Source: a phage. Taken from it: DNA of 52,935 nucleotides. The translations under genes were made by a program, and so were the position numbers. The notes under the pieces were generated by a model. The model saw nothing but the letters and a program-made list of their open reading frames with translations. It was not told the DNA's origin and did no database searches. Where the stretch lies: the NCBI GenBank assembly GCA_024614105.1, contig GCA_024614105.1_4894.1; one strand, given 5' to 3'. Shown here one piece after another: positions 26,069 through 39,744 of this stretch; the first letter of the stretch is position 1; each line of letters opens with the position of its first letter.

Positions 26069-26270
26069 TAAGCCTGAAGTTGTTTATGTTGACAGGGTAG
26101 TCAAGGTTTATCCGCCTGGTGCGTACCTGGTTAAATGCCATAAGCCTGAATTAACAGGTAATACCTGGAAGGCAATAGGTCAGTTAGCTATTGAACGTGG
26201 AACAGCTCTTGATGATTGTGCAGACAAGATGGACAGCATAATTAGCTGGAGTAACAAAGGGGCCGAGTGA
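25995..26270 (+). CDS. o-spanin (Rz1-like outer membrane lipoprotein)
   Basis: Starts in +1 frame inside i-spanin gene; RBS AAGAAGGG; signal peptide with lipobox LNSC; extends past i-spanin stop. Confidence 0.6.
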   Translation: MTKRQKMIRALIPLLLLPFLNSCADKPEVVYVDRVVKVYPPGAYLVKCHKPELTGNTWKAIGQLAIERGTALDDCADKMDSIISWSNKGAE

Positions 26271-26285
26271 TGGCCCCTTTATTTG
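26257..26285. terminator. bidirectional terminator between convergent lysis (+) and replication (-) blocks
   Basis: AAGGGGCC / GGCCCCTT stem around the o-spanin stop codon, T-rich on both sides. Confidence 0.55.
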
Positions 26286-27079: not shown

Positions 27080-29047
27080 TTAGTGTGCCTCTGCCCAGTT
27101 ACTTTCTATCTTAGCATCAGTAAGAACAGGTACACGAAGCGGTAACACAGTTTCCATGACCCGTACGAAATCATAGAATCCATCTTCTGCTTGCTTACCA
27201 GTTGGTAGAGAGAAGTTAAGCTCATCGTGTACCGTCAGGCGAGGCACGCCAATCACGTCAAAGTAACCGTCTTCATACCCTTTCAGCATTGCAGACTTCA
27301 TCTGGTCTGCTGACGACCCTTGCAGCACTCGGTTGATTGCTTTGTGGGTGTCTGCCAGTTTAATGTTTGGACCATACTCCTGACGTGCTTCTTCAAATGG
27401 TAAAGGCGTCTTACCGAATCCACCACGTTTTGGGACCCATTTGTTGAACCACGTCTTCCGGCCCATAAAGGTTTCTACATACCCCTGGCTATAACATAAA
27501 TCTTCATAATGCTTCATGGTAGCACCAATGAATGGTGCACCCTGATGGTACGCCTTCAGAACAGGTTCTGCTTCTTCAGGCGTCATTGCTAACTTACGGG
27601 CAAGAGCATTAAGCATCATGCCATATAACAAACCAAAGTTGATGGTCTTGGCCGGCTTACGCTCTATAACGTGACCTGAGGCTTCCTTGATAATATCGAC
27701 CATAACATTGTGGTAATCTGCTTCCGGGTTAGCCGCGAAAATTGCTCGTAACTCATCAGCGCCCGGGCCGACTGCAAAATGCGCCATGAATCGATATTCA
27801 ATTTGGGCGTAGTCTGCTGATCCCCATCTATGTCCGACGTCCGGTACGAAACAAGCACGAAGGAGTGGTCCCAGTATTTTGTGTCTAGACGGTATATTCT
27901 GCAGATTAGGGTCAGATGAGCTAAACCGACCACTAACGGTTCCACCGTCATCACCGCGCATTTGATGGAATTGACCGTGAAGGAAGCCATTTGTATTCAT
28001 CCCCAATATGTAGCCACGAATAAACGTGGACTGGATTTTCTCATAAGACTTAATCTCAGACACCAGTTCCGCAAACGGATGGTGCAAGCCTGCTAAGAAG
28101 TCTGCCGTAAACGACGGATTACCCGCCGCTGTTCTGAAGTACTCCAGACCTAAATGGTCAAATGCAAGAGCTAAGTCCGGACCTGAGTTAACGTTAATGT
28201 TAAAACCAATCTGGTCTTTAATCTGCTGGTGCATTTTCCTTATTTCAGCGCTAAGCGTATCATCCGCCTCCTTGGCCTTGTCAAGGTCAACACGTACACC
28301 TGCAAAACGCATCTTAAGCATTAATGGAATGAGTTTGCACTCCATATAGAATACGTCTGTTAAACACCAGCGACTTAACAATGGCCACTGGGCTTTGATA
28401 ATGTGTATTGGTAAGTCGGCGTCAGATTCAGCATAGTAACCCACAAGACGAGGAGGCGTTTTGTAGATGTACTTTCTGGCTTCACCTGTTGGCTTACAGC
28501 CATAAGCATCTGAAATCCATTGGTACATCTCGGCTGAGTCTTTACCTTCGCCTACATATTTTCGTCCAAGTCCTTCAAGTGCAACACGCGCGCCTGGGTC
28601 AAGTAATGCTTCCGCGAATTGTACATCCATGCACAATCCTTTAACTTCCACGCCTTCTGCTGCAAGCCAGCCCAAGTCATATGTGATGTTAGCACCGACT
28701 TTAACTTGGTTAGGTCGCGAGAGTTCGAGCCGAAGCCAACCAAGTACTTCCTCAACTGGAAGGTTATCCTCTTCGCCGAGCTCGTGTCTGATTGGGTAGT
28801 AAGCTTTGAAGCCGTTGTCCGTAGCGATACTAACTCCAACGATATGACCCTCCCTCCTGGCCCAACCACTACCATTTGTATCCATCCCTGGGTCGTATGT
28901 TTCACAGTCAAGACCGATAATCTTTGCAGAAGACAAGTCCGGGTAATGCGCGCGCGGCCGCCATCCAGTATCCCTGACGTATGGGATAGGACGGCTGATA
29001 GGTTTAACATTCTTTGCACCTTCGAAGCTATCGAATAAAAAGCTCAT
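27080..29047 (-). CDS. DNA polymerase, family A, with 3'-5' exonuclease domain
   Basis: 655 aa; exo motif IIGLDCETY; polymerase motifs DYAQIEYRF, KTINFGLLYG and VHDE; ATGA coupling with upstream gene. Confidence 0.9.
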   Translation of the reverse strand: MSFLFDSFEGAKNVKPISRPIPYVRDTGWRPRAHYPDLSSAKIIGLDCETYDPGMDTNGSGWARREGHIVGVSIATDNGFKAYYPIRHELGEEDNLPVEEVLGWLRLELSRPNQVKVGANITYDLGWLAAEGVEVKGLCMDVQFAEALLDPGARVALEGLGRKYVGEGKDSAEMYQWISDAYGCKPTGEARKYIYKTPPRLVGYYAESDADLPIHIIKAQWPLLSRWCLTDVFYMECKLIPLMLKMRFAGVRVDLDKAKEADDTLSAEIRKMHQQIKDQIGFNINVNSGPDLALAFDHLGLEYFRTAAGNPSFTADFLAGLHHPFAELVSEIKSYEKIQSTFIRGYILGMNTNGFLHGQFHQMRGDDGGTVSGRFSSSDPNLQNIPSRHKILGPLLRACFVPDVGHRWGSADYAQIEYRFMAHFAVGPGADELRAIFAANPEADYHNVMVDIIKEASGHVIERKPAKTINFGLLYGMMLNALARKLAMTPEEAEPVLKAYHQGAPFIGATMKHYEDLCYSQGYVETFMGRKTWFNKWVPKRGGFGKTPLPFEEARQEYGPNIKLADTHKAINRVLQGSSADQMKSAMLKGYEDGYFDVIGVPRLTVHDELNFSLPTGKQAEDGFYDFVRVMETVLPLRVPVLTDAKIESNWAEAH

Positions 29048-30042
29048 CAGTCCCCTCTCACATACGCAATTACAACTGTACGAGTTGAGTTTTCCATTTT
29101 GAGCGCCTGACTACCAAGTCCTATTCTTTCCATGCCTTTAGCCAGTTTACTCATCTGACTAATAACACAGTTGAATGGTTTACTAAACTTAGTCGACTGG
29201 AACTTAATGTCGACGGACATCTTTGGAATAATCTTATCTGGTAAGTCTGCCTTTGCAGTTGACTCACCTGTTATCTCCAGAATGGCTTGACCTTCGTCGT
29301 ACCCAGTAAGCTGGTCCATGACTTCCAGGAACTCAGGAGTGATGGCCTGCATATCCATTTCCATATTGAAGAACTTCGATACGTCTGGCCATTTGGCTGC
29401 AAGTACCGGGGCATCCATCTGTACACCATCCGCAAAGCCGAAGAACATCTGGCCGCGGGCGTATCCTACACTTGTGGGTTCCATCTTCAGCTTAACCAGA
29501 GCCTCAAGCATTGGTTTGGCTATGGCACATTCAAATTCAAAATCTACGTTCAACTTCTCGCGTATCATATACTTACCGTTAGTAGCGTAAGCATAACCAT
29601 CGCGCAGAAGTAAAGATGTAGCCCATACCTGCGGTGCTTCGTTAGGTACCCACTTGGCTAAGGCAGTTAATACCGGGAGTAATTCGCCATGCGCTGAATA
29701 CCAGTTGTTAACTGTAGCAAGCGGCGGTATTGGTTCATTAAGCGCTTGCATTCTTGTTTTAAGTACACCTGCTGTGACTGTGAGGTTTCCAGCGGCTGTA
29801 ATGTTAAAAGTAATCTGTTCAGTTCTTGCCGCATTAACGGCCTTACGAAATGATTCAGCATCCACTTGCAGGTCTGGGAATCCTTTACATGGCGCTCGTA
29901 GTAATACGTTCTTGTAGTATGAATGGATTGTTCCGTCTGCAATCCATATTTTGCCCATAAGACCACTATCAGTATACTTGATGGGACGAGCTTGTTGAAC
30001 GGCAGTCTGTATTTGTTTGGTGTCATAGTTAAACTTGCTCAT
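29047..30042 (-). CDS. hypothetical protein, translationally coupled to DNA polymerase
   Basis: 331 aa; start directly preceded by a GC hairpin with UUCG loop and no clear SD; no motif recognised. Confidence 0.5.
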   Translation of the reverse strand: MSKFNYDTKQIQTAVQQARPIKYTDSGLMGKIWIADGTIHSYYKNVLLRAPCKGFPDLQVDAESFRKAVNAARTEQITFNITAAGNLTVTAGVLKTRMQALNEPIPPLATVNNWYSAHGELLPVLTALAKWVPNEAPQVWATSLLLRDGYAYATNGKYMIREKLNVDFEFECAIAKPMLEALVKLKMEPTSVGYARGQMFFGFADGVQMDAPVLAAKWPDVSKFFNMEMDMQAITPEFLEVMDQLTGYDEGQAILEITGESTAKADLPDKIIPKMSVDIKFQSTKFSKPFNCVISQMSKLAKGMERIGLGSQALKMENSTRTVVIAYVRGD

Positions 30043-30049
30043 AGTATAA

Positions 30050-30065
30050 CGGGGCCGAAGCCCCG
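30050..30065 (-). terminator. GC hairpin with UUCG loop between TS-family gene and downstream gene (attenuator/stability element)
   Basis: Minus strand CGGGGC-UUCG-GCCCCG, no long U-run. Confidence 0.35.
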
Positions 30066-30072
30066 CTCCATC

Positions 30073-30957
30073 TTATACGGCCATTTGGAGTTTGATGTTC
30101 GGCATAGGTTTGTATTTCTCAACCATTGGCGTAACATCGGCAGGAGTGAAGTCAAACACTGACACGTCGTAAATTGCGTTAATGTCAGGACGACCTTCAA
30201 AGTTAGTGTCCAGTGTAGTATCAGAATTGCTTACGATACGTTGCAGGAAAATCTTTGCCGCATCGATATGATTCTGATAGATGTGGTAATCGCCCAGCGT
30301 AACAGTCATATCGCCTACACCAGTACCAAGCTCAGCAGCAATGGTAATTTGCAACATCTGATGCAGCAGAATATCGTGAGGTAGGCCGAGAATAACATCC
30401 GCGCTACGCATGTGGAACATCAGCTCTAGTTCATTACGGTTGTTAATGAACAGCTGAAAACCATGGTAGCAAGGCGGAAGGGCCATGGCGTCCATCTCTT
30501 GTGGGTTCCACGCCGTAATGTACGCCCGGCGGTCAGTAGGCTTAACCTTCAGCGTTTCAATAACGTCTTTAAGCTGGTTAGTAAGAACACCATTCTTATA
30601 GAATGGCTTAATCCATTGCACGCCGTACACAGGACCTAAGTCACGGTTGTCTGGCGTACCCCAACGTTTGTTTGCATCCTGCAGGTTACCTTCCCACCAG
30701 TTGCAGCCAAAGCCTTTGAGCGTGTCGACGTTTGAAATGCCGTTGATAAAGCAATAAAGCTCAGCAGCAACAGCTTTGATGTTAACAGGCTTAAACACCG
30801 GCACCATCAGTTTGTTGTCGTTGAAAGCCAGCTTAAATGCTGTACCAAAACAACGGCGGGTACCAACACCTGTACGGTCTACAACATCCTCGCCTTTACG
30901 CAGGATAAAAGAAATGATGTCGCTGTAAAGAGAATCGACAGTGCTGTATGTTTTCAT
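30073..30957 (-). CDS. thymidylate synthase-family enzyme with Asp at the Asn177-equivalent position (candidate dCMP hydroxymethylase/methylase)
   Basis: 294 aa; DLGPVYGVQW and ALPPCYHGFQLF (catalytic Cys) motifs; RSADVILGLPHD aligns gap-free to E. coli RSCDVFLGLPFN, placing Asp where ThyA has Asn. Confidence 0.75.
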   Translation of the reverse strand: MKTYSTVDSLYSDIISFILRKGEDVVDRTGVGTRRCFGTAFKLAFNDNKLMVPVFKPVNIKAVAAELYCFINGISNVDTLKGFGCNWWEGNLQDANKRWGTPDNRDLGPVYGVQWIKPFYKNGVLTNQLKDVIETLKVKPTDRRAYITAWNPQEMDAMALPPCYHGFQLFINNRNELELMFHMRSADVILGLPHDILLHQMLQITIAAELGTGVGDMTVTLGDYHIYQNHIDAAKIFLQRIVSNSDTTLDTNFEGRPDINAIYDVSVFDFTPADVTPMVEKYKPMPNIKLQMAV

Positions 30958-31550
30958 TAAAACAGTTCCTTTTGAGCCGGGTTAACGTGTGCGTCGATGA
31001 TGGCCTGGATGTCAGGTGCTTTCCATCCTTCAGGCTTAACAATATCCTGACCAGACTTATGCTTACTGTTGCTTGCATCAGGCTTAGCACGCTCTTTCGC
31101 CATGTTAGCAGTCTGTACCGCATCCCATGCAGCATCAAGCGGCCAGTTGTTGTTTGCACACCAGGTAATCAGGTGGATAATTAACTGGGCCAGACGGTCG
31201 CAATGGGTGTCTTCAGTATCTTTAACGTATACGATAAGACCATCAGCATCGAAGCGGTCCATAAATCCGCATGGCGTGGTTAACAGAATCGGATACTCAA
31301 ATTCGTTGGTGAACCATGCAGTCTGGTCATACAGGTATAACGTACCTGCAGCAATATAAATTAAATCTACAATACCGTCTAAGAATCCAGCTTTGTCGCC
31401 ATCCTTCTTAGCTTGCTTAATTTCTTCCATCTCCTCAATAAGACGGTCGTAGCGAAGCTTGAACTCAGGTTTACCGCCTTGGCTAACAGGCTTGAGGTCA
31501 AACTTCTCATGAAAAGCGGTAACGCCTGCAGCAATTTTACTGAATCGCAT
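30957..31550 (-). CDS. MazG-like nucleoside triphosphate pyrophosphohydrolase
   Basis: 197 aa; EExxE-type motif LIEEMEEIKQ and DGIVDLIY; TAATG coupling to the TS-family gene. Confidence 0.6.
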   Translation of the reverse strand: MRFSKIAAGVTAFHEKFDLKPVSQGGKPEFKLRYDRLIEEMEEIKQAKKDGDKAGFLDGIVDLIYIAAGTLYLYDQTAWFTNEFEYPILLTTPCGFMDRFDADGLIVYVKDTEDTHCDRLAQLIIHLITWCANNNWPLDAAWDAVQTANMAKERAKPDASNSKHKSGQDIVKPEGWKAPDIQAIIDAHVNPAQKELF

Positions 31551-31935
31551 TTCGTAACTCCTTACAAACAGTTTCGATAAACTTACGTTTAATTTCTGTA
31601 GACCAGATAATATGACGAGCCTGTTCTAAAGTGTCCCAACGTTCTTTACCCACAGGAAAGGGAACAATGAAAAGGCCGGTACGGGATATGCGCTTGATAA
31701 ACGGGAATTTACAGCGCATGGTTGTTTCAAACTTGATAAAGTTTGTTTGCACTTCGCGTGTAAACTTGACCTTATCAAATTCATGTTCAAGAGTTTGAGC
31801 AATGTTGCATACTTCCTGGAAAGAAGATGCAGGCAAGTAATCTTCGCGGCCGACTGTGTTCACGTAGTCGATTTGGCCCTCTAGCCGAAGTATCCAAATC
31901 CTGTAATAAGCTTCAGCAACACGTTGTAGGTTCAT
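31537..31935 (-). CDS. hypothetical protein
   Basis: 132 aa; RBS AGAGGAGAG; first gene after promoter at 31962-31990. Confidence 0.45.
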   Translation of the reverse strand: MNLQRVAEAYYRIWILRLEGQIDYVNTVGREDYLPASSFQEVCNIAQTLEHEFDKVKFTREVQTNFIKFETTMRCKFPFIKRISRTGLFIVPFPVGKERWDTLEQARHIIWSTEIKRKFIETVCKELRNAIQ

Positions 31936-31961
31936 TGTATCTCTCCTCTAAAAGATAACTT

Positions 31962-31990
31962 ATTATACCACATCACTCTCTAGTGGTAAA
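31962..31990 (-). promoter_or_regulatory. sigma70-type promoter with CCAC/GTGG dyad in spacer
   Basis: Minus strand: TTTACC (rc of 31985-31990), 17-nt spacer, TATAAT (rc of 31962-31967). Confidence 0.5.
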
Positions 31991-32010
31991 GCACTTTTTA
32001 CGCTTCTGGT

Positions 32011-32046
32011 AAAAATAAAAAGGACCAGCGTTAACTGGTCCTTTTG
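32011..32046. terminator. bidirectional intrinsic terminator
   Basis: AGGACCAG / CTGGTCCT stem flanked by A-run (32011-32020) and T-run. Confidence 0.6.
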
Positions 32047-32274
32047 GCAGGGTGGCGTAAGGAGATACAAGGCATCGTAACTATGCAACCAGGCAGCGCA
32101 TATGAGATTGGCCAAAAGATTTACCATTTTAATCCCCGCGACGAGACGAAAAGGAGGTGTCATCGAGTAGCCAATCACATATGCGTTACTTGCTGTGTGC
32201 TCTCACCGCAGAAAGTATAGAGCGTTGCGCTTATTACACCGATGGAGTGGCAAAAGCACACAGCGAGTACAACC

Positions 32275-32359
32275 TTAGTTGTGGTGTCTTAGCACCTGAG
32301 TTATTGTGGATAACCTGCACCCGACGGGTGTCAAAAAGATACGCCAAAACACCACAACT
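32275..32359. repeat. long-range inverted repeat TAGTTGTGGTG / CACCACAACTA
   Basis: 11-mer at 32276-32286 and its reverse complement at 32348-32358 enclosing about 60 nt. Confidence 0.4.
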
Positions 32360-32382
32360 AAAATTGTGACCGCCGTCTACAC

Positions 32383-32394
32383 CAGGCGCCTGGG
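32383..32394. repeat. perfect 12-bp palindrome CCAGGCGCCTGG
   Basis: Self-complementary dodecamer in the 570-bp noncoding region next to the tRNA-like element. Confidence 0.5.
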
Positions 32395-32421
32395 GTCAAG
32401 GTAGCGAGCCAATACCCTTTT

Positions 32422-32516
32422 TCAGCGTCGGAGGAATCGAACCTCACACATCACGGCTTTTACCAAATCTCGGTCAGCGAGCAGAATTGAACTGCATTCA
32501 CTGGACACCCTCACTG
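32422..32516 (-). tRNA. tRNA-like element (canonical T-arm; cloverleaf not resolved, possibly intron-containing or degenerate)
   Basis: Minus-strand GGTTCGATTCC T-loop motif (rc of 32433-32443) with 4-bp T-stem and a 5/7-paired acceptor candidate; D and anticodon arms could not be built by hand. Confidence 0.3.
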
Positions 32517-32613
32517 TTTCAACACACCAGGCTTAATTGATTGTTGATAAGAAGAGAGATGTAAGGATGTCCATTGAATGCACCTCCGTAGAGGTGCGTT
32601 CAGATCAGCGCTA

Positions 32614-33081
32614 TTATTCAGCAACTTCTTCGTTGTCGCCTTCGATCGCGCCAGCCAGTTTAGCAGCTTCAGCTTTAGCAGCTTCTGCTTTCTGACGAGC
32701 TTTTTCAGCTTTCTCTTCAGCTTTGCGAATCTGCTCAGCAGCTTTCGCTTCGGCTTTTTCAGCTTTGATGCGAGCACGCTCTTCAGCTTTACGCTGTTTT
32801 TCAGCGGCTTTAGCAGCATCGCGTTCTGCTTTAGCGGTATCAACACGCTTAGCCAGAACCTTACCAGTGGCTTTACGCCAGTAGGTCAGCTGGGAAGAAA
32901 CAGTACCACGGGACATTTCGGTAGTGGCAACAACTTCGTCCATAACGTCAGAGCTGGACTTGCCTTCTTCATGAGCTTTATCAGCCAGGTCCCATACGTA
33001 ACGCGCACCAGTACCAGCTGCCGGATACAGTACGCCGTTAACTTCTTCTTTACCAGTTACAAAAGTCAGTTTCTCGCTCAT
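32614..33081 (-). CDS. DNA-binding protein with Lys/Ala/Glu-rich repetitive C-terminal tail (histone H1-like)
   Basis: Start at ATG 33081 (MSEKLTF) with RBS GAGGA; C-terminal AEKA/KAEE repeats mirrored by cagcttt DNA repeats. Confidence 0.5.
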   Translation of the reverse strand: MSEKLTFVTGKEEVNGVLYPAAGTGARYVWDLADKAHEEGKSSSDVMDEVVATTEMSRGTVSSQLTYWRKATGKVLAKRVDTAKAERDAAKAAEKQRKAEERARIKAEKAEAKAAEQIRKAEEKAEKARQKAEAAKAEAAKLAGAIEGDNEEVAE

Positions 33082-33129
33082 AATTTTTTCCTCGTCTACA
33101 GGGCTTAATGTTTGTTCGTTACGTGAGTT

Positions 33130-33158
33130 AATATACGTCATTTAAAAGAGTGTGTAAA
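33130..33158 (-). promoter_or_regulatory. sigma70-type promoter (TTTACA-N17-TATATT)
   Basis: Minus strand -35 = rc of 33153-33158, -10 = rc of 33130-33135. Confidence 0.45.
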
Positions 33159-33187
33159 CACCTTTTTTAAACTTTTTTCATTAGTGT

Positions 33188-33415
33188 CTAGAAAGGCACA
33201 TCATAGTCAAAAAGTTTACATCCGGAAGACAGGACCGCCGGCGGTGGTGTTTTGCCTCCGGATAATAGACAACCTCCTGCCTGAAAACTACGGCAGTTTG
33301 CACAGCTCATATCCTGCAAGTATATAATAAGCTGTCGGCGAACATGCCGTGGTAAAGCTTTAGCCTGGGTTGCTACCCGTTCAAATAGTTCTCTGTCATC
33401 GAGCGCCATAGCCAT
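33188..33415 (-). CDS. hypothetical small Cys-containing protein
   Basis: 75 aa; overlaps helicase 3' end by 20 nt; weak support. Confidence 0.3.
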   Translation of the reverse strand: MAMALDDRELFERVATQAKALPRHVRRQLIIYLQDMSCANCRSFQAGGCLLSGGKTPPPAVLSSGCKLFDYDVPF

Positions 33416-35066
33416 TTCCCCAGTCGTAGTTCATGATTTGTGGGTAGGGTCGTTTAATCCATACCTTGATGCGCTTAGGAATAGCCAGCTCACCCTTACG
33501 GCGAATAAACTCATCGCATGTTTCAGGCGGTTCTGTTCCTGCAGCATTACGCCACCAGGCATCTGCCATTTGCTTAGCATTACCATGGGCCTCTATATTT
33601 ACCCAAGTTGTGTACACTTCCAGGTTTGAGTAGTACACAACCTTTATACTGTCAGGCCGTCCCTGCTTCTGGAATAAAGAATAGTTTACCAGCGTAACAT
33701 CTTTATCCACAACACGAAGCTGACCGTTAGTCATTACCTCTTCCTCAGATGAGGTGAAGGCAATAGCAGGTCCGTTAACTGTAAACTCAAATTCATGTCC
33801 GCACATCGGATATACACCATTCTCGTCTGGTGTACTTCCTTTAGCCGGATGCTTACACGTACGAGCAGCATAGCCACTTACCTGGTGGCAGATAGGGCAC
33901 TCTTTACCGCCAGGTGTTTTCTCTGACCGTTTCTTTTTCTTCTTACCAAGACGCGGCGGAACAGCCGGGTCGTCAATAGGTCCAAGGTCAATGGTGTTAG
34001 ATGTAAAGTCCATAACAAGACAGTCATGCTTGCCAGGCGCTGTACGTAATCCTCGACCAAGTATCTGCACCCACAAAGCAACAGACGTGGACGGGCGCAA
34101 GATGCCGAGCATATCAATTTCAGGGTAGTCAAATCCTGTCGTCAATACGTTTACGTTTACGCAGACCCTGGCTCGTCCGCTTGTAAACTCTTCCAGTGCG
34201 GCTTCGCGTTCTTTCTTTGTAAGACCACCATGCACAACTACAGTCTGCCACCCGCGCAGATTAAACTCGTCTGCTATGTTGTGGGCGTGCTCAACACTTG
34301 TGGCAAATACAAGAACGTGGTTCCTGTCTTTACCGTAGTGCATCATCTCACGAATAGCCGCGACTGTTATACTATGCTGGTTGGCTACCTTCTCAAGCTC
34401 TGACGGGATATAGTCACCCATCCTTTCGCCAACATTACTGGTGTCAATCTTGGTTAACACTTTCTTGTTGACCAGGCGTGACAGGAAGCCTTCATTTACC
34501 AGTCTGGTGAATGCGTCAGGTGTTGTAAGGTCATAGCAGATGTCGGTAAATATACCACAGTCCAGCAAGTGACCACCTGCAAGGCGATACGGAGTTGCTG
34601 TAAGTCCTGTTACTTTTACCTTAGGATTAAGCTCTTTGAAGTGAGCAATAACCTTACGGTATGTTGTTTCAGACTTCTCAGGAACAAGATGGGCTTCGTC
34701 AATGAATATAAGATTGAACTTACCTGCTTCTTCCAGGTTCTTAATGATTGACTGTACTGATGCTACAACGATACGACCTGAAAAGTCTTTATGTCCTGCA
34801 CCTGAAGAGTAGATTGATACTGGTGCTTGTGGCCAGTGACGAACAATCGCTTTGGCGTCTTGTTCAACCAGCTCCTTGACGTGAGTCAGTATAAGAATAC
34901 GCTGACGCGGATAGCTGGTAAGAATATCCTTCATCAGCATACCAAGCACAGGTGACTTGCCTGAACCTGTTGGCATGACAATAAGTGGGTTACCACTATA
35001 AGAATTGAAGTACGACCACCAAGCTGTGACCGCTTCTTGTTGATACCAGCGAGCTTCAAAAGCCAT
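33396..35066 (-). CDS. superfamily 2 DNA helicase (DEAH box)
   Basis: 556 aa; Walker A PTGSGKS, DEAH in FIDEAHLV, C-terminal Cys cluster (CPICHQ...C...C); RBS GAGGAG. Confidence 0.85.
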   Translation of the reverse strand: MAFEARWYQQEAVTAWWSYFNSYSGNPLIVMPTGSGKSPVLGMLMKDILTSYPRQRILILTHVKELVEQDAKAIVRHWPQAPVSIYSSGAGHKDFSGRIVVASVQSIIKNLEEAGKFNLIFIDEAHLVPEKSETTYRKVIAHFKELNPKVKVTGLTATPYRLAGGHLLDCGIFTDICYDLTTPDAFTRLVNEGFLSRLVNKKVLTKIDTSNVGERMGDYIPSELEKVANQHSITVAAIREMMHYGKDRNHVLVFATSVEHAHNIADEFNLRGWQTVVVHGGLTKKEREAALEEFTSGRARVCVNVNVLTTGFDYPEIDMLGILRPSTSVALWVQILGRGLRTAPGKHDCLVMDFTSNTIDLGPIDDPAVPPRLGKKKKKRSEKTPGGKECPICHQVSGYAARTCKHPAKGSTPDENGVYPMCGHEFEFTVNGPAIAFTSSEEEVMTNGQLRVVDKDVTLVNYSLFQKQGRPDSIKVVYYSNLEVYTTWVNIEAHGNAKQMADAWWRNAAGTEPPETCDEFIRRKGELAIPKRIKVWIKRPYPQIMNYDWGNGYGAR

Positions 35067-35092
35067 TTAACGTCTCCTCATTAACTTCATAT

Positions 35093-35121
35093 ATTATACC
35101 ACTTCCTTGTGGTGATGTATA
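35093..35121 (-). promoter_or_regulatory. promoter with CACCAC/GTGGTA dyad and TATAAT -10
   Basis: Minus strand -10 TATAAT = rc of 35093-35098; -35 weak (TATACA); dyad in spacer. Confidence 0.4.
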
Positions 35122-35124
35122 CTT

Positions 35125-36003
35125 TTATTTTAAGGAAAGTTTAACGGGCTTCTCATCCTGTGGGAAGACATCAGCAGGGCGATACTCATCGCAAGCCGCT
35201 AATTGCTCTTCGATTGTTTCGAGCTCTTTCTGATGCTTGTTGCAGTACCACACTTTGCCCTGAAGCGGTTTACTGTAATGGCAGGTTCTGCAGTTCCTGT
35301 CTGGCATTGCTCCTTTGTGGCACAGGTGATGGTATTCGCACATCCCTGGTTTGCACTCCCACCAAATAGGCGATTCAGAAATCTTCGGCATATCCAAACC
35401 AGATTCCGCATATACAACAGCCTCCGCTTTACTCAGTTGTATGTCGCTTTCCAGTAAGTCAATATCGACCACTTCAAAATACATCTCGTCAGTGTTCTTA
35501 TTGATTGCAATGTACACAGCTTGATTCAGCTTAAGCTTCCGCATGTATACCTGCATCTGGGCGTAGTGTACCGGCTTACTTGCTTTAACAGACTTGAGCT
35601 TGACTAACTCTTTAAACGACTTATCACCATGCGTCTTGAATTCAGCAAGTGCCCATACGCCTTTGTATTTAATTACACAGTCACAAGACCCGGAGAAGAT
35701 GTCATTGAATTCGTGTATGCGCCATTGCTTACCCGTCTTGGGATTGACGTCCAGCACTTCGTCACATACGGTGCGAAGCCACTTTACAATTCTGCTTTCT
35801 TCAAGGTTACCACGTTCAAACAGACGAAGTTGCTTAGCAGAAAACTTCTCCTTGAACGACCAGTGCAGAACGTGCCAAAGATAGCGATAGCAGTTGTGTC
35901 CTATCTGCGATGCTCCAAGATGCCCGCGTCGCTCTTCTCTTTCGTGGGCTTCGACTATCTTGATGTCGATACGCTTCTGCAGGTCGTCAAACGGACTGGG
36001 CAT
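35125..36003 (-). CDS. PD-(D/E)xK nuclease with C-terminal Cys cluster (Cas4/RecB-like exonuclease)
   Basis: Start at ATG 36003 with RBS GAGGAG; ..D..V...G.WALAEFKT.. core; C-terminal C-x7-C-x5-C...C-x2-C cluster. Confidence 0.6.
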   Translation of the reverse strand: MPSPFDDLQKRIDIKIVEAHEREERRGHLGASQIGHNCYRYLWHVLHWSFKEKFSAKQLRLFERGNLEESRIVKWLRTVCDEVLDVNPKTGKQWRIHEFNDIFSGSCDCVIKYKGVWALAEFKTHGDKSFKELVKLKSVKASKPVHYAQMQVYMRKLKLNQAVYIAINKNTDEMYFEVVDIDLLESDIQLSKAEAVVYAESGLDMPKISESPIWWECKPGMCEYHHLCHKGAMPDRNCRTCHYSKPLQGKVWYCNKHQKELETIEEQLAACDEYRPADVFPQDEKPVKLSLK

Positions 36004-36472
36004 TGTTAAACTCCTCAACACTGAATTCATCGTACACAATATTATGAGCCCACAAATGAGCGACGGCATTTGCCATGCTTTCCTTCCATTTGGATTGTGA
36101 AGCTGTATGCGCCAATGCAACTACACGTACCAGGTTAAGGTTGGCTATCAGCATGTCTGCACAATGTTCGCACGGCGGGTAGGTTATGTAGATGGTAACC
36201 GGGCCTAATGAAGGAGTGTCTAACTCCCTCCTTATATTAGCTAAGGTGTTTATCTCGCTATGAATAGTTAGAGCGTTCTTGAGGCTATTAGGCACTATCC
36301 TTATAGAGTCTAACTGCGTAGGCAGACCGTTATATCCAGTGGAAATAATACGCTTGTTCTGGTCCACAAGAACGCTACCGACTTGACGTTTCGGGTCCTT
36401 CGACCAGCTTGCAACTTCACAAGCTATGCGCATAAACCGCCTGTCCCACTTGTCCATCTTCTTCTTTTGCAT
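35987..36472 (-). CDS. dCMP deaminase (cytidine/deoxycytidylate deaminase fold)
   Basis: 161 aa; zinc-binding HSE(INTL) and PCEHC motifs; RBS GGAG. Confidence 0.75.
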   Translation of the reverse strand: MQKKKMDKWDRRFMRIACEVASWSKDPKRQVGSVLVDQNKRIISTGYNGLPTQLDSIRIVPNSLKNALTIHSEINTLANIRRELDTPSLGPVTIYITYPPCEHCADMLIANLNLVRVVALAHTASQSKWKESMANAVAHLWAHNIVYDEFSVEEFNNAQSV

Positions 36473-38838: not shown

Positions 38839-39744
38839 TTACAGCAGTTCTGCTTTCAATGCAGCGATACCATCGAGCAGTGCTTTGATGTCCGGGTTAG
38901 ATGCCGCCAGATCAGCAACAACTGACTGACGACGACGTTCCAGTTCTTTCTCAACTTCCAGGTCGAGGCGTGCTGACGCTTCACGCAGTAAGTCTTCAAC
39001 CTGCTGACGACGCTGATACTTGCTAAAGTCAGGCACGTCAACCAGCCATTTGAGAGTTGCAGTGTTGTAGCCAGAAGTATTTGCTGCACTTACAGACACA
39101 ACATCAACGAGCTTGGTACCATTCAGCTCAGGATAGTTAACATTGCGAACGTCAACAACCGCTTTGTCACCTACACTTACTTTGCCGATGTACTTGTAAG
39201 TGTACACACGACCATTCGGTTCAAACTTAACACCAACAAACTTCAGTTTGTCGTCTGCAATAACCTCTTCCTCAACTTTGAAGTTGATTGCAGTGTTCTT
39301 GACAGGTGCAGCCGCTTTGAGCTTAGCAACCATGTACTGTTCGGAATGAGACGGACGGCACAGACGGAAAACGTCTTCATTGTATGTCAGCCAGTTACCG
39401 GTTTCATCCACGCATGCAATCTGATTAGTGCCATCCAGCGAACGAACGCCCGGGCGATTCTTCTCAACACGATACAGCTTACCTTCTTTCAGGTTAGCGT
39501 AAGAACGGCGGGCGATACCCCAGTTGTGTTTTTCAGATTCGTACTTAGCGAAACGGTCAACGCTGAAGTTCTGCTTCAGACCACGGTCGTCAATTACCCA
39601 TAAGTTATCATAAGCCCCGCCGAAAGAGCCGAGGTTGGCATACACTTTGCCCTGCGTCAACAGGGAAGTGTTTCCCTCGTCAACACAGATAACAAAACCC
39701 AGAGCTTCGTGTGCTTTACCGCTGCGGTCAAATACTGTAGTCAT
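38839..39744 (-). CDS. hypothetical protein
   Basis: 301 aa; RBS AAGGA; C-terminal coiled-coil-like segment. Confidence 0.5.
   Translation of the reverse strand: MTTVFDRSGKAHEALGFVICVDEGNTSLLTQGKVYANLGSFGGAYDNLWVIDDRGLKQNFSVDRFAKYESEKHNWGIARRSYANLKEGKLYRVEKNRPGVRSLDGTNQIACVDETGNWLTYNEDVFRLCRPSHSEQYMVAKLKAAAPVKNTAINFKVEEEVIADDKLKFVGVKFEPNGRVYTYKYIGKVSVGDKAVVDVRNVNYPELNGTKLVDVVSVSAANTSGYNTATLKWLVDVPDFSKYQRRQQVEDLLREASARLDLEVEKELERRRQSVVADLAASNPDIKALLDGIAALKAELL

Follow-up and report, generated by a model that had tools for sequence, protein, structure and literature searches.

The 331-residue protein encoded on the minus strand at positions 29047..30042 of a 52,935-nucleotide (nt) phage DNA (NCBI GenBank assembly GCA_024614105.1, contig GCA_024614105.1_4894.1) is, we hold with very high confidence, a homologue of the DnaN-type sliding clamp that serves the phage DNA polymerase. 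This entire stretch of DNA is referred to below as the window, and coordinates are window positions unless a relative is named. The whole explanation, in which a diverged DnaN clamp acts as the processivity factor of the polymerase encoded next to it, we hold with high confidence. The clamp identity of the protein is in itself already known, given that public records and PHROGs label it so, and a literature search found no experimental study of this clamp family. By fold and remote homology the protein is a member of the DnaN superfamily, and it lies outside all curated DnaN models. A first-pass annotation, made from the letters of the window alone, had proposed either a clamp-like polymerase accessory factor or a DNA-modification enzyme. 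The features on which the argument depends are as follows.

29047..30042, minus strand: clamp gene, encoding the 331-residue DnaN-type three-domain sliding-clamp homologue and very probable processivity factor of the phage polymerase (open reading frame (ORF), PHROG, AlphaFold, Foldseek, profile searches, RefSeq name)
27080..29047, minus strand: family A DNA polymerase that includes a 3'-5' exonuclease domain and is the presumed clamp client (PF00476, E 5e-63; PF01612; PHROG 17)
29021..29047, minus strand: polymerase codons 1-9, MSFLFDSFE, a candidate clamp-binding peptide (conservation)
29051-29059, minus strand: GAGAGGGGA, a putative Shine-Dalgarno-like run for the polymerase gene, within the last clamp codons

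Fold and remote homology to DnaN

As a single query the 331-residue protein gives no match in Pfam or NCBIfam, even at E <= 1, or among PDB sequences, which agrees with the failure of the first-pass annotation to recognise a motif, and no homologue of the protein carries a precomputed Pfam domain. It is identified only through PHROGs, profile searches and structure prediction. PHROG 947, "DNA polymerase processivity factor", matches the protein end to end (E 1.9e-47), RefSeq names the equivalent gene of phage BP63 (gp54) "DNA polymerase beta subunit", and other database records for the same protein read "DNA polymerase processivity factor" or "hypothetical protein". An AlphaFold2 model generated from 14 homologues has a predicted local distance difference test (pLDDT) score of 89.4 and a predicted template modelling (pTM) score of 0.81. 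DSSP assignment on this model yields three clamp-domain repeats, at approximately residues 1-116, 114-230 and 231-331, and each predicted domain is composed of two helices and two sheets (beta-alpha-beta-beta-beta twice), giving the three-domain chain of DnaN. The best 50 Foldseek matches in the PDB are all bacterial DnaN beta clamps aligned over their full length (E ~1e-18, query template modelling score (TMq) 0.75-0.81), and the matches in BFVD, a library of viral structures, are phage proteins named beta clamp or DNA polymerase III beta. A two-domain, trimeric clamp of the PCNA or T4 gp45 type does not fit the three-domain model with its full-length DnaN match. A transcription-activator role like that of T4 gp45 was also considered, and nothing was found in support of it.

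The relation extends to sequence. A profile of 22 family members searched against the PDB found 18 sequences, all of them beta clamps (best E 2.2e-7), and hhalign against E. coli DnaN gave a probability of 89% and an E of 2e-6 over 215 columns; because the family profile retrieves DnaN by sequence, the relation to DnaN is one of homology and more than a shared fold. In the hhalign alignment RPWAxGxLL is paired with RYYLNGMLF, SAYATNN with VATDGHRL, and WPD with FPDY(RRVL) of E. coli DnaN. These stretches are the most conserved in the family and read VWATSLLL, YATNGKYMI and WPDVSKFF in the window protein, while the E. coli stretches RYYLNG, ATDGHRL and FPDYRRV are those that we take to line the peptide-binding cleft of DnaN.

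The family is large, with 3467 cluster representatives matching the profile at E <= 1e-3, and nearly all of the best 150 representatives listed are 310-330 residues long. Full-length homologues at 43-100% identity are present in many phage genomes, and together with the cluster representatives they mark 29047..30042 as a real gene and not a chance ORF; the ATG-started frame for 331 residues proposed at this position on the minus strand is likewise borne out by the ORF list. The first-pass suggestion of a clamp-like polymerase accessory factor is therefore supported by predicted fold, profile homology, PHROG and GenBank annotation, and adjacency to the polymerase, and the profile hidden Markov model and structure predictions that it had put forward as a way of distinguishing a clamp from a transferase returned a clamp fold.

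Conservation of the clamp-polymerase pair

The polymerase gene adjoins the clamp gene in every distant relative examined, and the order clamp then polymerase is seen in Rosemountvirus, Loughboroughvirus, Nonagvirus 9g, Septimatrevirus Ab26, Titanvirus, Lokivirus and metagenomic contigs. In the window the junction reads GGG-GAC-TGA/ATG-AGC, so that the clamp stop and the polymerase start share the single base 29047 (TGATG); the ATGA overlap reported earlier for this site was a misreading of what is a 1-nt overlap. The clamp would be made from the same operon as the overlapping family A polymerase, and it is most likely the processivity factor of that polymerase. Small ORFs lie between the clamp and polymerase genes in several relatives (L021 4960-5364, L088 5161-5571, L062 5173-5541, L097 5003-5684 and L099 1138-1326), and these include Cys-rich HNH-like proteins (MKPCKRGH...HCxEC), a KilR-like protein and others, which indicates that tight coupling of the two genes is common and not obligatory.

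A longer gene order, Sak4 - SSB - Cas4 exonuclease - DEAD helicase - variable insert - clamp - polymerase, is shared by 9g, Ab26, RcTitan, Halfdan and metagenomic contigs. The content of the insert depends on the lineage. In the window (31537-36120 compared with L002, L004, L009 and L010-L012) it consists of orf132 and the MazG-like and thymidylate synthase (TS)-like genes; in 9g-like phages it consists of the 7-deazaguanine genes FolE-QueD-QueE-QueC and a tRNA-ribosyltransferase-like (DpdA-like) gene; and in Ab26 and RcTitan it is missing, with the helicase gene directly before the clamp-polymerase pair. Since the insert differs by lineage and the clamp-polymerase pairing is constant, the proximity of the TS gene appears to be an accident of a variable cassette. 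The slot between helicase and clamp looks like a hotspot for DNA-modification cassettes just upstream of the replicase.

The TS homologue and a proposed role in DNA modification

30073..30957, minus strand: TS-family gene (Pfam PF00303, E 2e-62)
30957-31550: MazG-like pyrophosphatase gene

The placement of the 331-residue protein between the TS-family gene and the family A polymerase, as first described, is confirmed by coordinates and Pfam matches, and it raises the alternative that the protein is a DNA- or nucleotide-modifying transferase acting on the product of the TS-like enzyme. Residue D195 of the TS homologue (codon 30373-30375) lies in GLPHD, at the place of the Asn in the G[LV]PFN (GVPFN) of true thymidylate synthases, and the Asp is kept in all clade members checked save L006 (PHN). 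A change from Asn to Asp here makes dCMP rather than dUMP the preferred substrate, with T4 dCMP hydroxymethylase and TS N177D as examples. With Asp in place of Asn, the earlier description of the homologue as "cytosine-type" is a fair one, and the position of the 331-residue protein directly downstream of a homologue that would act on dCMP speaks for the transferase. Together with the MazG-like, dCMP deaminase, DHFR and dNMP kinase genes, the TS homologue looks like part of a pathway for a 5-modified dCTP. A further point in favour of the transferase comes from the sister-genus phage S144, the DNA of which resists enzymes cutting GC-containing sites with no modification gene identified there (PMC7432712).

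Against this stand the predicted beta-clamp fold, with sliding clamps making up all of the best 50 structural matches, and the Pfam, PHROG and NCBIfam searches, which recovered no transferase family. In phages devoid of any TS gene, homologues of the protein still adjoin a polymerase gene, and in L006, where the TS homologue carries the ordinary Asn, the clamp-polymerase pair is unchanged. No conserved catalytic motif is seen, and the conserved residues instead align to the DnaN peptide cleft. Because fold and synteny both point to a clamp, we reject the modification enzyme as extremely improbable: there is neither a transferase fold nor a transferase motif, and the TS adjacency that had suggested it is lineage-specific.

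Terminal peptides of the polymerases

If the protein is a clamp for the neighbouring polymerase, a clamp-binding element is expected on the latter, and short terminal peptides that vary by clade are probably such motifs. The polymerases of the window clade start with MSFLF[DE]xFE, and a Lys/Pro-rich linker lies between this N-terminal peptide and the exonuclease domain. The more distant RF1 polymerase starts with LLFSDF and that of L099 with MLFENF, while the L187, L188 and Halfdan polymerases start with MFFDEE, MFFAEA and MFFDDL, respectively. An IMG/VR search with the window protein as a single query gave 4 loci, and one with the Halfdan clamp as query gave no loci; the main-clade set from IMG/VR comprises 80 loci fetched (L013-L092), 75 of which have a polymerase ORF. 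The polymerase N-terminus RxDxxG[LFM][FW]WxD is present in all 75, although these polymerases are of two kinds, 12 being A-family and 63 B-family-like (PHROG 1252). Phage 9g (L009, 5984-7957) is placed in the same clamp clade.

The PHROG 1252 polymerases are diverged B-family enzymes, with PDB matches to S. solfataricus PolB1 (E 1.5e-8) and E. coli Pol II, and they have no detectable similarity to the window polymerase. Because RxDxxG[LFM][FW]WxD is shared by two dissimilar polymerase families beside one clamp family, it is best explained as a clamp-binding element, and its distribution suggests that in the main clade the polymerase was replaced while the clamp-binding tail was retained or transferred. 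The Ab26/RcTitan clade polymerases lack such an N-terminus, and the complete ones mostly end in L-x-[FL]-F (AALSFF, GKLFF, TLGLF, ESASLF). This C-terminal LxΦF resembles the bacterial clamp-binding motif QL[SD]LF (PMC9690074). When the termini of all ORFs in the window were scanned for LF[DE]xF, ΦFWx[DE], QLxLF and SLF, the polymerase and one spurious antisense ORF were the only matches, leaving the polymerase as the sole real window gene with a terminal LF[DE]xF.

By analogy with these systems, the N-terminal MSFLFDSF of the window polymerase would be its tether to the clamp, a proposal that we judge somewhat better than an even bet. The peptide, carried on the Lys/Pro-rich linker, would dock where domains II and III of the clamp form a hydrophobic cleft, and it is this proposed cleft that would hold the most conserved residues of the family (..VWA..LLL.., YATNG and WPD). 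The occurrence of one N-terminal peptide on dissimilar polymerases offers a concrete handle on polymerase-clamp recognition, and terminal peptides of this kind could aid the annotation of divergent phage polymerases and of clamps that are missed by current hidden Markov model libraries.

The window polymerase itself has as its best NCBIfam match the aminoadenine-incorporating DpoZ model NF038380, at 306 bits versus a cutoff of 500 bits. It is a relative of the DpoZ subfamily and not a member, and no PurZ gene is seen.

Possible ring formation, charge and loading

From fold, homology, synteny and the distribution of motifs we infer ring formation, peptide docking, a loading route and an effect on processivity. 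With three clamp domains per protomer, a head-to-tail dimer would give a six-domain ring around duplex DNA. In the model, the six predicted channel helices have a net charge of +6 and the remainder of the protein a net charge of -5, and basic residues occupy the positions of K67 and K184 in 90-100% of family members. The family median isoelectric point (pI) is 5.66 (n=165), with 10% of members above pI 7, and that of E. coli DnaN is 5.25; by the pI criterion of PMC3201878, the family value is one expected of clamps that form rings. We favour a DnaN-like dimeric ring, probably loaded by the host DnaX complex, over an open mode of binding; because the phage encodes no recognisable loader, loading would presumably fall to the host DnaX complex or to an unrecognised factor. 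Phages of 40-140 kb are typically without clamps, and loader-less viral clamps tend to have a raised pI and to bind DNA directly (Kazlauskas and Venclovas, PMC3201878); the window clamp family is evidently too diverged to have appeared in that survey.

Several observations weigh against the reading of the protein as a DnaN-like ring that serves the polymerase. The curated DnaN thresholds (PF00712, PF02767, PF02768 and NCBIfam) are not reached, and identity to DnaN in the Foldseek alignments is only 10-14%. Neither the RefSeq annotation nor PHROG and Pfam scans of large unannotated ORFs brought out an AAA+ clamp loader, a result that sits awkwardly with a closed ring; apart from a Sak4/AAA_24 protein and DHFR, the scans gave only families without an assigned function. 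The window protein has a pI of 7.6, above the family median, which leans toward direct DNA binding. The candidate tether MSFLFDSF is an exact match to neither QL[SD]LF nor the motif of the main clade, and its role is assigned by analogy. Ring closure, dimerisation, DNA encirclement and polymerase binding are all predicted from a monomer model and from sequence. Finally, the clamp gene of Salmonella phage rivia (MT074438.1, 25713-26694) is annotated as two coding sequences (186 and 150 residues in BFVD), and protein P0013 of phage SPHG1 is a 214-residue clamp fragment; these broken genes may be sequencing or assembly errors, or else an intact clamp may be dispensable.

The largest unassigned ORF of the replication block, at 38839-39744 on the minus strand, encodes a 301-residue conserved protein (PHROG 33391) with no Pfam match. 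It is not an obvious clamp loader, because it has no AAA+ signature.

The lack of a detected loader and the pI of the window protein bear on a non-ring processivity subunit of the UL42/UL44 type, a monomer or open dimer that would hold DNA by a basic face and would need no loader. The tendency of loader-less viral clamps to a raised pI and direct DNA binding (PMC3201878) fits this arrangement, the contrast in pI with E. coli DnaN (7.6 vs 5.25) points the same way, and the tight coupling of clamp and polymerase genes would suit a stoichiometric complex. We nevertheless consider it unlikely, though a live rival, given that acidity prevails across the family, as it does among cellular clamps that form rings, that the DnaN match is full-length and takes in both edge domains that form the DnaN dimer interface, and that the hosts all have a DnaX loader open to borrowing.

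A different use of the fold would be as a clamp mimic directed at the host, sequestering the DnaX complex, Pol III or Hda, or poisoning the host beta clamp, with a role for the phage polymerase that is secondary or absent. Without a phage loader, contact with the host loader is plausible, and the cleft-lining motifs resemble those of DnaN. A third point in its favour comes from the Ab26 clade, in which 11 of the 15 clamps end in ...DDIPF, mimicking the C-terminal tail of bacterial SSB. In E. coli many host replication proteins, among them the chi subunit of the clamp loader, are drawn in by the SSB tail, and by analogy the Ab26-clade clamps may use their DDIPF tail, which the window clamp lacks, to recruit a loader. 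The constant pairing of clamp and polymerase genes in all relatives examined argues against a host-directed mimic, as do the clade-specific terminal peptides of the polymerases, which suggest that the clamp chiefly serves the phage polymerase. None of the analyses indicated an effect on the host, and we regard the mimic as quite improbable. The Septimatrevirus and Titanvirus clamps (Ab26, L010 4842-6005; RcTitan, L011 4845-6071; L170-L180) also have a low-complexity N-terminal extension of ~50-80 residues.

Comparison with other processivity systems

With bacterial DnaN (E. coli Pol III beta, PDB 2pol and many others) the window protein has in common the three domains per chain, the TMq range and profile homology given above, conserved ATxG and [FW]PD stretches that align with the DnaN cleft region, and an acidic family pI combined with basic channel helices. 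The two differ in length (366 residues in DnaN versus 331 here), in their low sequence identity and in the failure of the window protein to reach Pfam and NCBIfam thresholds. They also differ in partner: DnaN works with the C-family Pol III, whereas the window clamp family is paired with phage A- or B-family polymerases, the window phage encodes no recognised cognate loader, and the proposed client motif is the N-terminal aromatic-acidic MSFLFDSF, unlike QL[SD]LF.

The polymerase gp43 of T4 and RB69 provides a parallel for such a peptide, in that a phage clamp (gp45) there likewise serves a phage polymerase through a short terminal hydrophobic-acidic sequence, as is proposed here. The RB69 polymerase tail, ...SLFDMFDF, resembles MSFLFDSF. 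In contrast to the window protein, which has three domains, a predicted N-terminal peptide partner and no loader found, gp45 has a two-domain protomer, forms a trimer and is loaded by gp44/62, and its partner peptide is C-terminal. The herpesvirus proteins UL42 and UL44 also have a clamp fold and work directly with the viral polymerase, and they do so without a clamp loader (PMC9690074, PMC3201878). They belong to the PCNA-like two-domain type, bind DNA through strongly basic faces and form open assemblies, whereas the window clamp family is DnaN-like and mostly acidic. The T7 gp5-thioredoxin complex likewise combines a family A phage polymerase with an accessory processivity protein, the role predicted here for the clamp; there, however, the accessory is a host protein unrelated to clamps that binds an insertion in the polymerase thumb, and here it is a phage-encoded clamp homologue.

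A broader proposal, to which we give slightly less than an even chance, is that a large family of loader-less DnaN-type clamps in 40-60 kb phages forms an interchangeable module for A- or B-family polymerases, engaged through a terminal peptide that covaries with clade and loaded through a hijacked host DnaX complex or without a loader. If true, this would be an undescribed replisome architecture, and it would contradict the generalisation that phages of such genome size lack sliding clamps (PMC3201878). The points most worth following are the clade-specific terminal peptides across A- and B-family polymerases and the absence of a loader in a 53-kb phage.

A conserved hairpin upstream of the clamp gene

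30050-30065, minus strand: GC hairpin CGGGGC-UUCG-GCCCCG, lying in the 29 nt that separate the TS stop codon from the clamp start codon (sequence and centroid fold)
30066-30069, minus strand: GGAG, a putative Shine-Dalgarno-like tetramer touching the 5' foot of the hairpin

Sequence and centroid fold both bear out the GC hairpin with a UUCG loop that had been noticed just before the clamp start codon. The accompanying remark that no obvious Shine-Dalgarno sequence is present holds for the 7 nt between hairpin and AUG (UUAUACU) and does not hold for the spacer as a whole, since a GGAG stands at 30066-30069 in an arrangement that is conserved in relatives. This GGAG is 23 nt from the AUG in the linear sequence and ~7 nt from it when the hairpin is folded out. 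The hairpin is kept in all of eight distinct TS-clamp spacer variants from relatives (clamp identity 48-86%), which share the layout GGAG, 0-2 nt, a 6-12 bp GC-rich hairpin (about -15 to -16.5 kcal/mol), 5-9 U/A-rich nt and AUG, with the GGAG 23-29 nt upstream of the AUG in linear sequence. Stem pairs were counted from the loop outward on RNAfold structures; a MAFFT alignment of this short region was structurally incoherent and was not used. By this count, GC<->CG swaps occur at four stem positions among the eight variants, and because these swaps are compensatory the hairpin structure appears to be under selection. The hairpin is absent from RF1 and L099, in which the TS and clamp genes are 2 nt apart. 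A pattern scan of metagenomes for the TS-stop/hairpin/clamp-start junction returned 64 stretches, of which one was a true relative (a duplicate of L168) and the rest were chance matches.

We tentatively propose that the hairpin serves to bring the GGAG close to the AUG, looping out 16-24 nt as a hairpin-bridged Shine-Dalgarno element. In T4 genes 38 and 25 the Shine-Dalgarno sequence is hairpin-bridged: it stands ~22-27 nt ahead of the AUG, and the spacer between the two folds into a stable hairpin. The GGAG-hairpin-AUG spacing of the window is alike, and folding would restore normal spacing as in the T4 genes; unlike the T4 elements, the one described here also looks like an intrinsic terminator in most relatives. 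That likeness is the basis of a second possibility, that the hairpin is an intrinsic terminator or attenuator, possibly a partial one, or a 3' end that stabilises the RNA of the upstream nucleotide-metabolism genes, and not a ribosome-binding device. Downstream of the GC stem, relatives carry U-rich tails such as UUUUAACU, UUUUUGACU, UUUUAAUAU and UUUUAAUUU, the classic form of an intrinsic terminator, and this explanation too we put forward as a tentative one.

The window hairpin fits the terminator form less well, in that it was not flagged by a terminator scan, which is attributed to its U-poor tail, UUAUACU. Full termination would also deprive the clamp and polymerase genes of transcript, with no promoter-like site between the hairpin and the AUG. 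The bridging function is favoured by the same U-poor tail and missing promoter, and by the fixed GGAG, which is at the 5' foot in 8 of 8 variants with an effective spacing to the AUG of 5-9 nt; the absence of the hairpin from genomes with only 2 nt between the TS and clamp genes also counts against a terminator.

Genome context and operon boundaries

The window is essentially one whole, near-complete Rosemountvirus genome of a BP63-like phage. The 4.6 kb around the clamp gene are 97-99% identical to more than 40 Salmonella and Escherichia Rosemountvirus genomes (BP63-like myoviruses of ~52-53 kb), and the closest genome over those 4.6 kb is Escherichia phage vB_EcoBD_211 (98.8%). Three further elements bound the genes discussed above.

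31962..31990, minus strand: sigma-70-like promoter, TTTACC-17-TATAAT with TG (consensus scan, a pattern match)
26256-26280, plus strand: strong terminator-like hairpin, AAAGGGGCC...GGCCCCTTT, between the convergent lysis and replication gene blocks
32018-32045, minus strand: second strong terminator-like hairpin, just upstream of the promoter-like site at 31962-31990

The BP63 RefSeq record has an annotated promoter at the place equivalent to 31962..31990, and the window site probably drives an operon of orf132, the MazG-like gene, the TS-like gene, the clamp gene and the polymerase gene. Terminators are annotated in BP63 at the position of the 26256-26280 hairpin, which could act in both directions. 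The hairpins at 26256-26280 and 32018-32045 flank the replicase operon on both sides.

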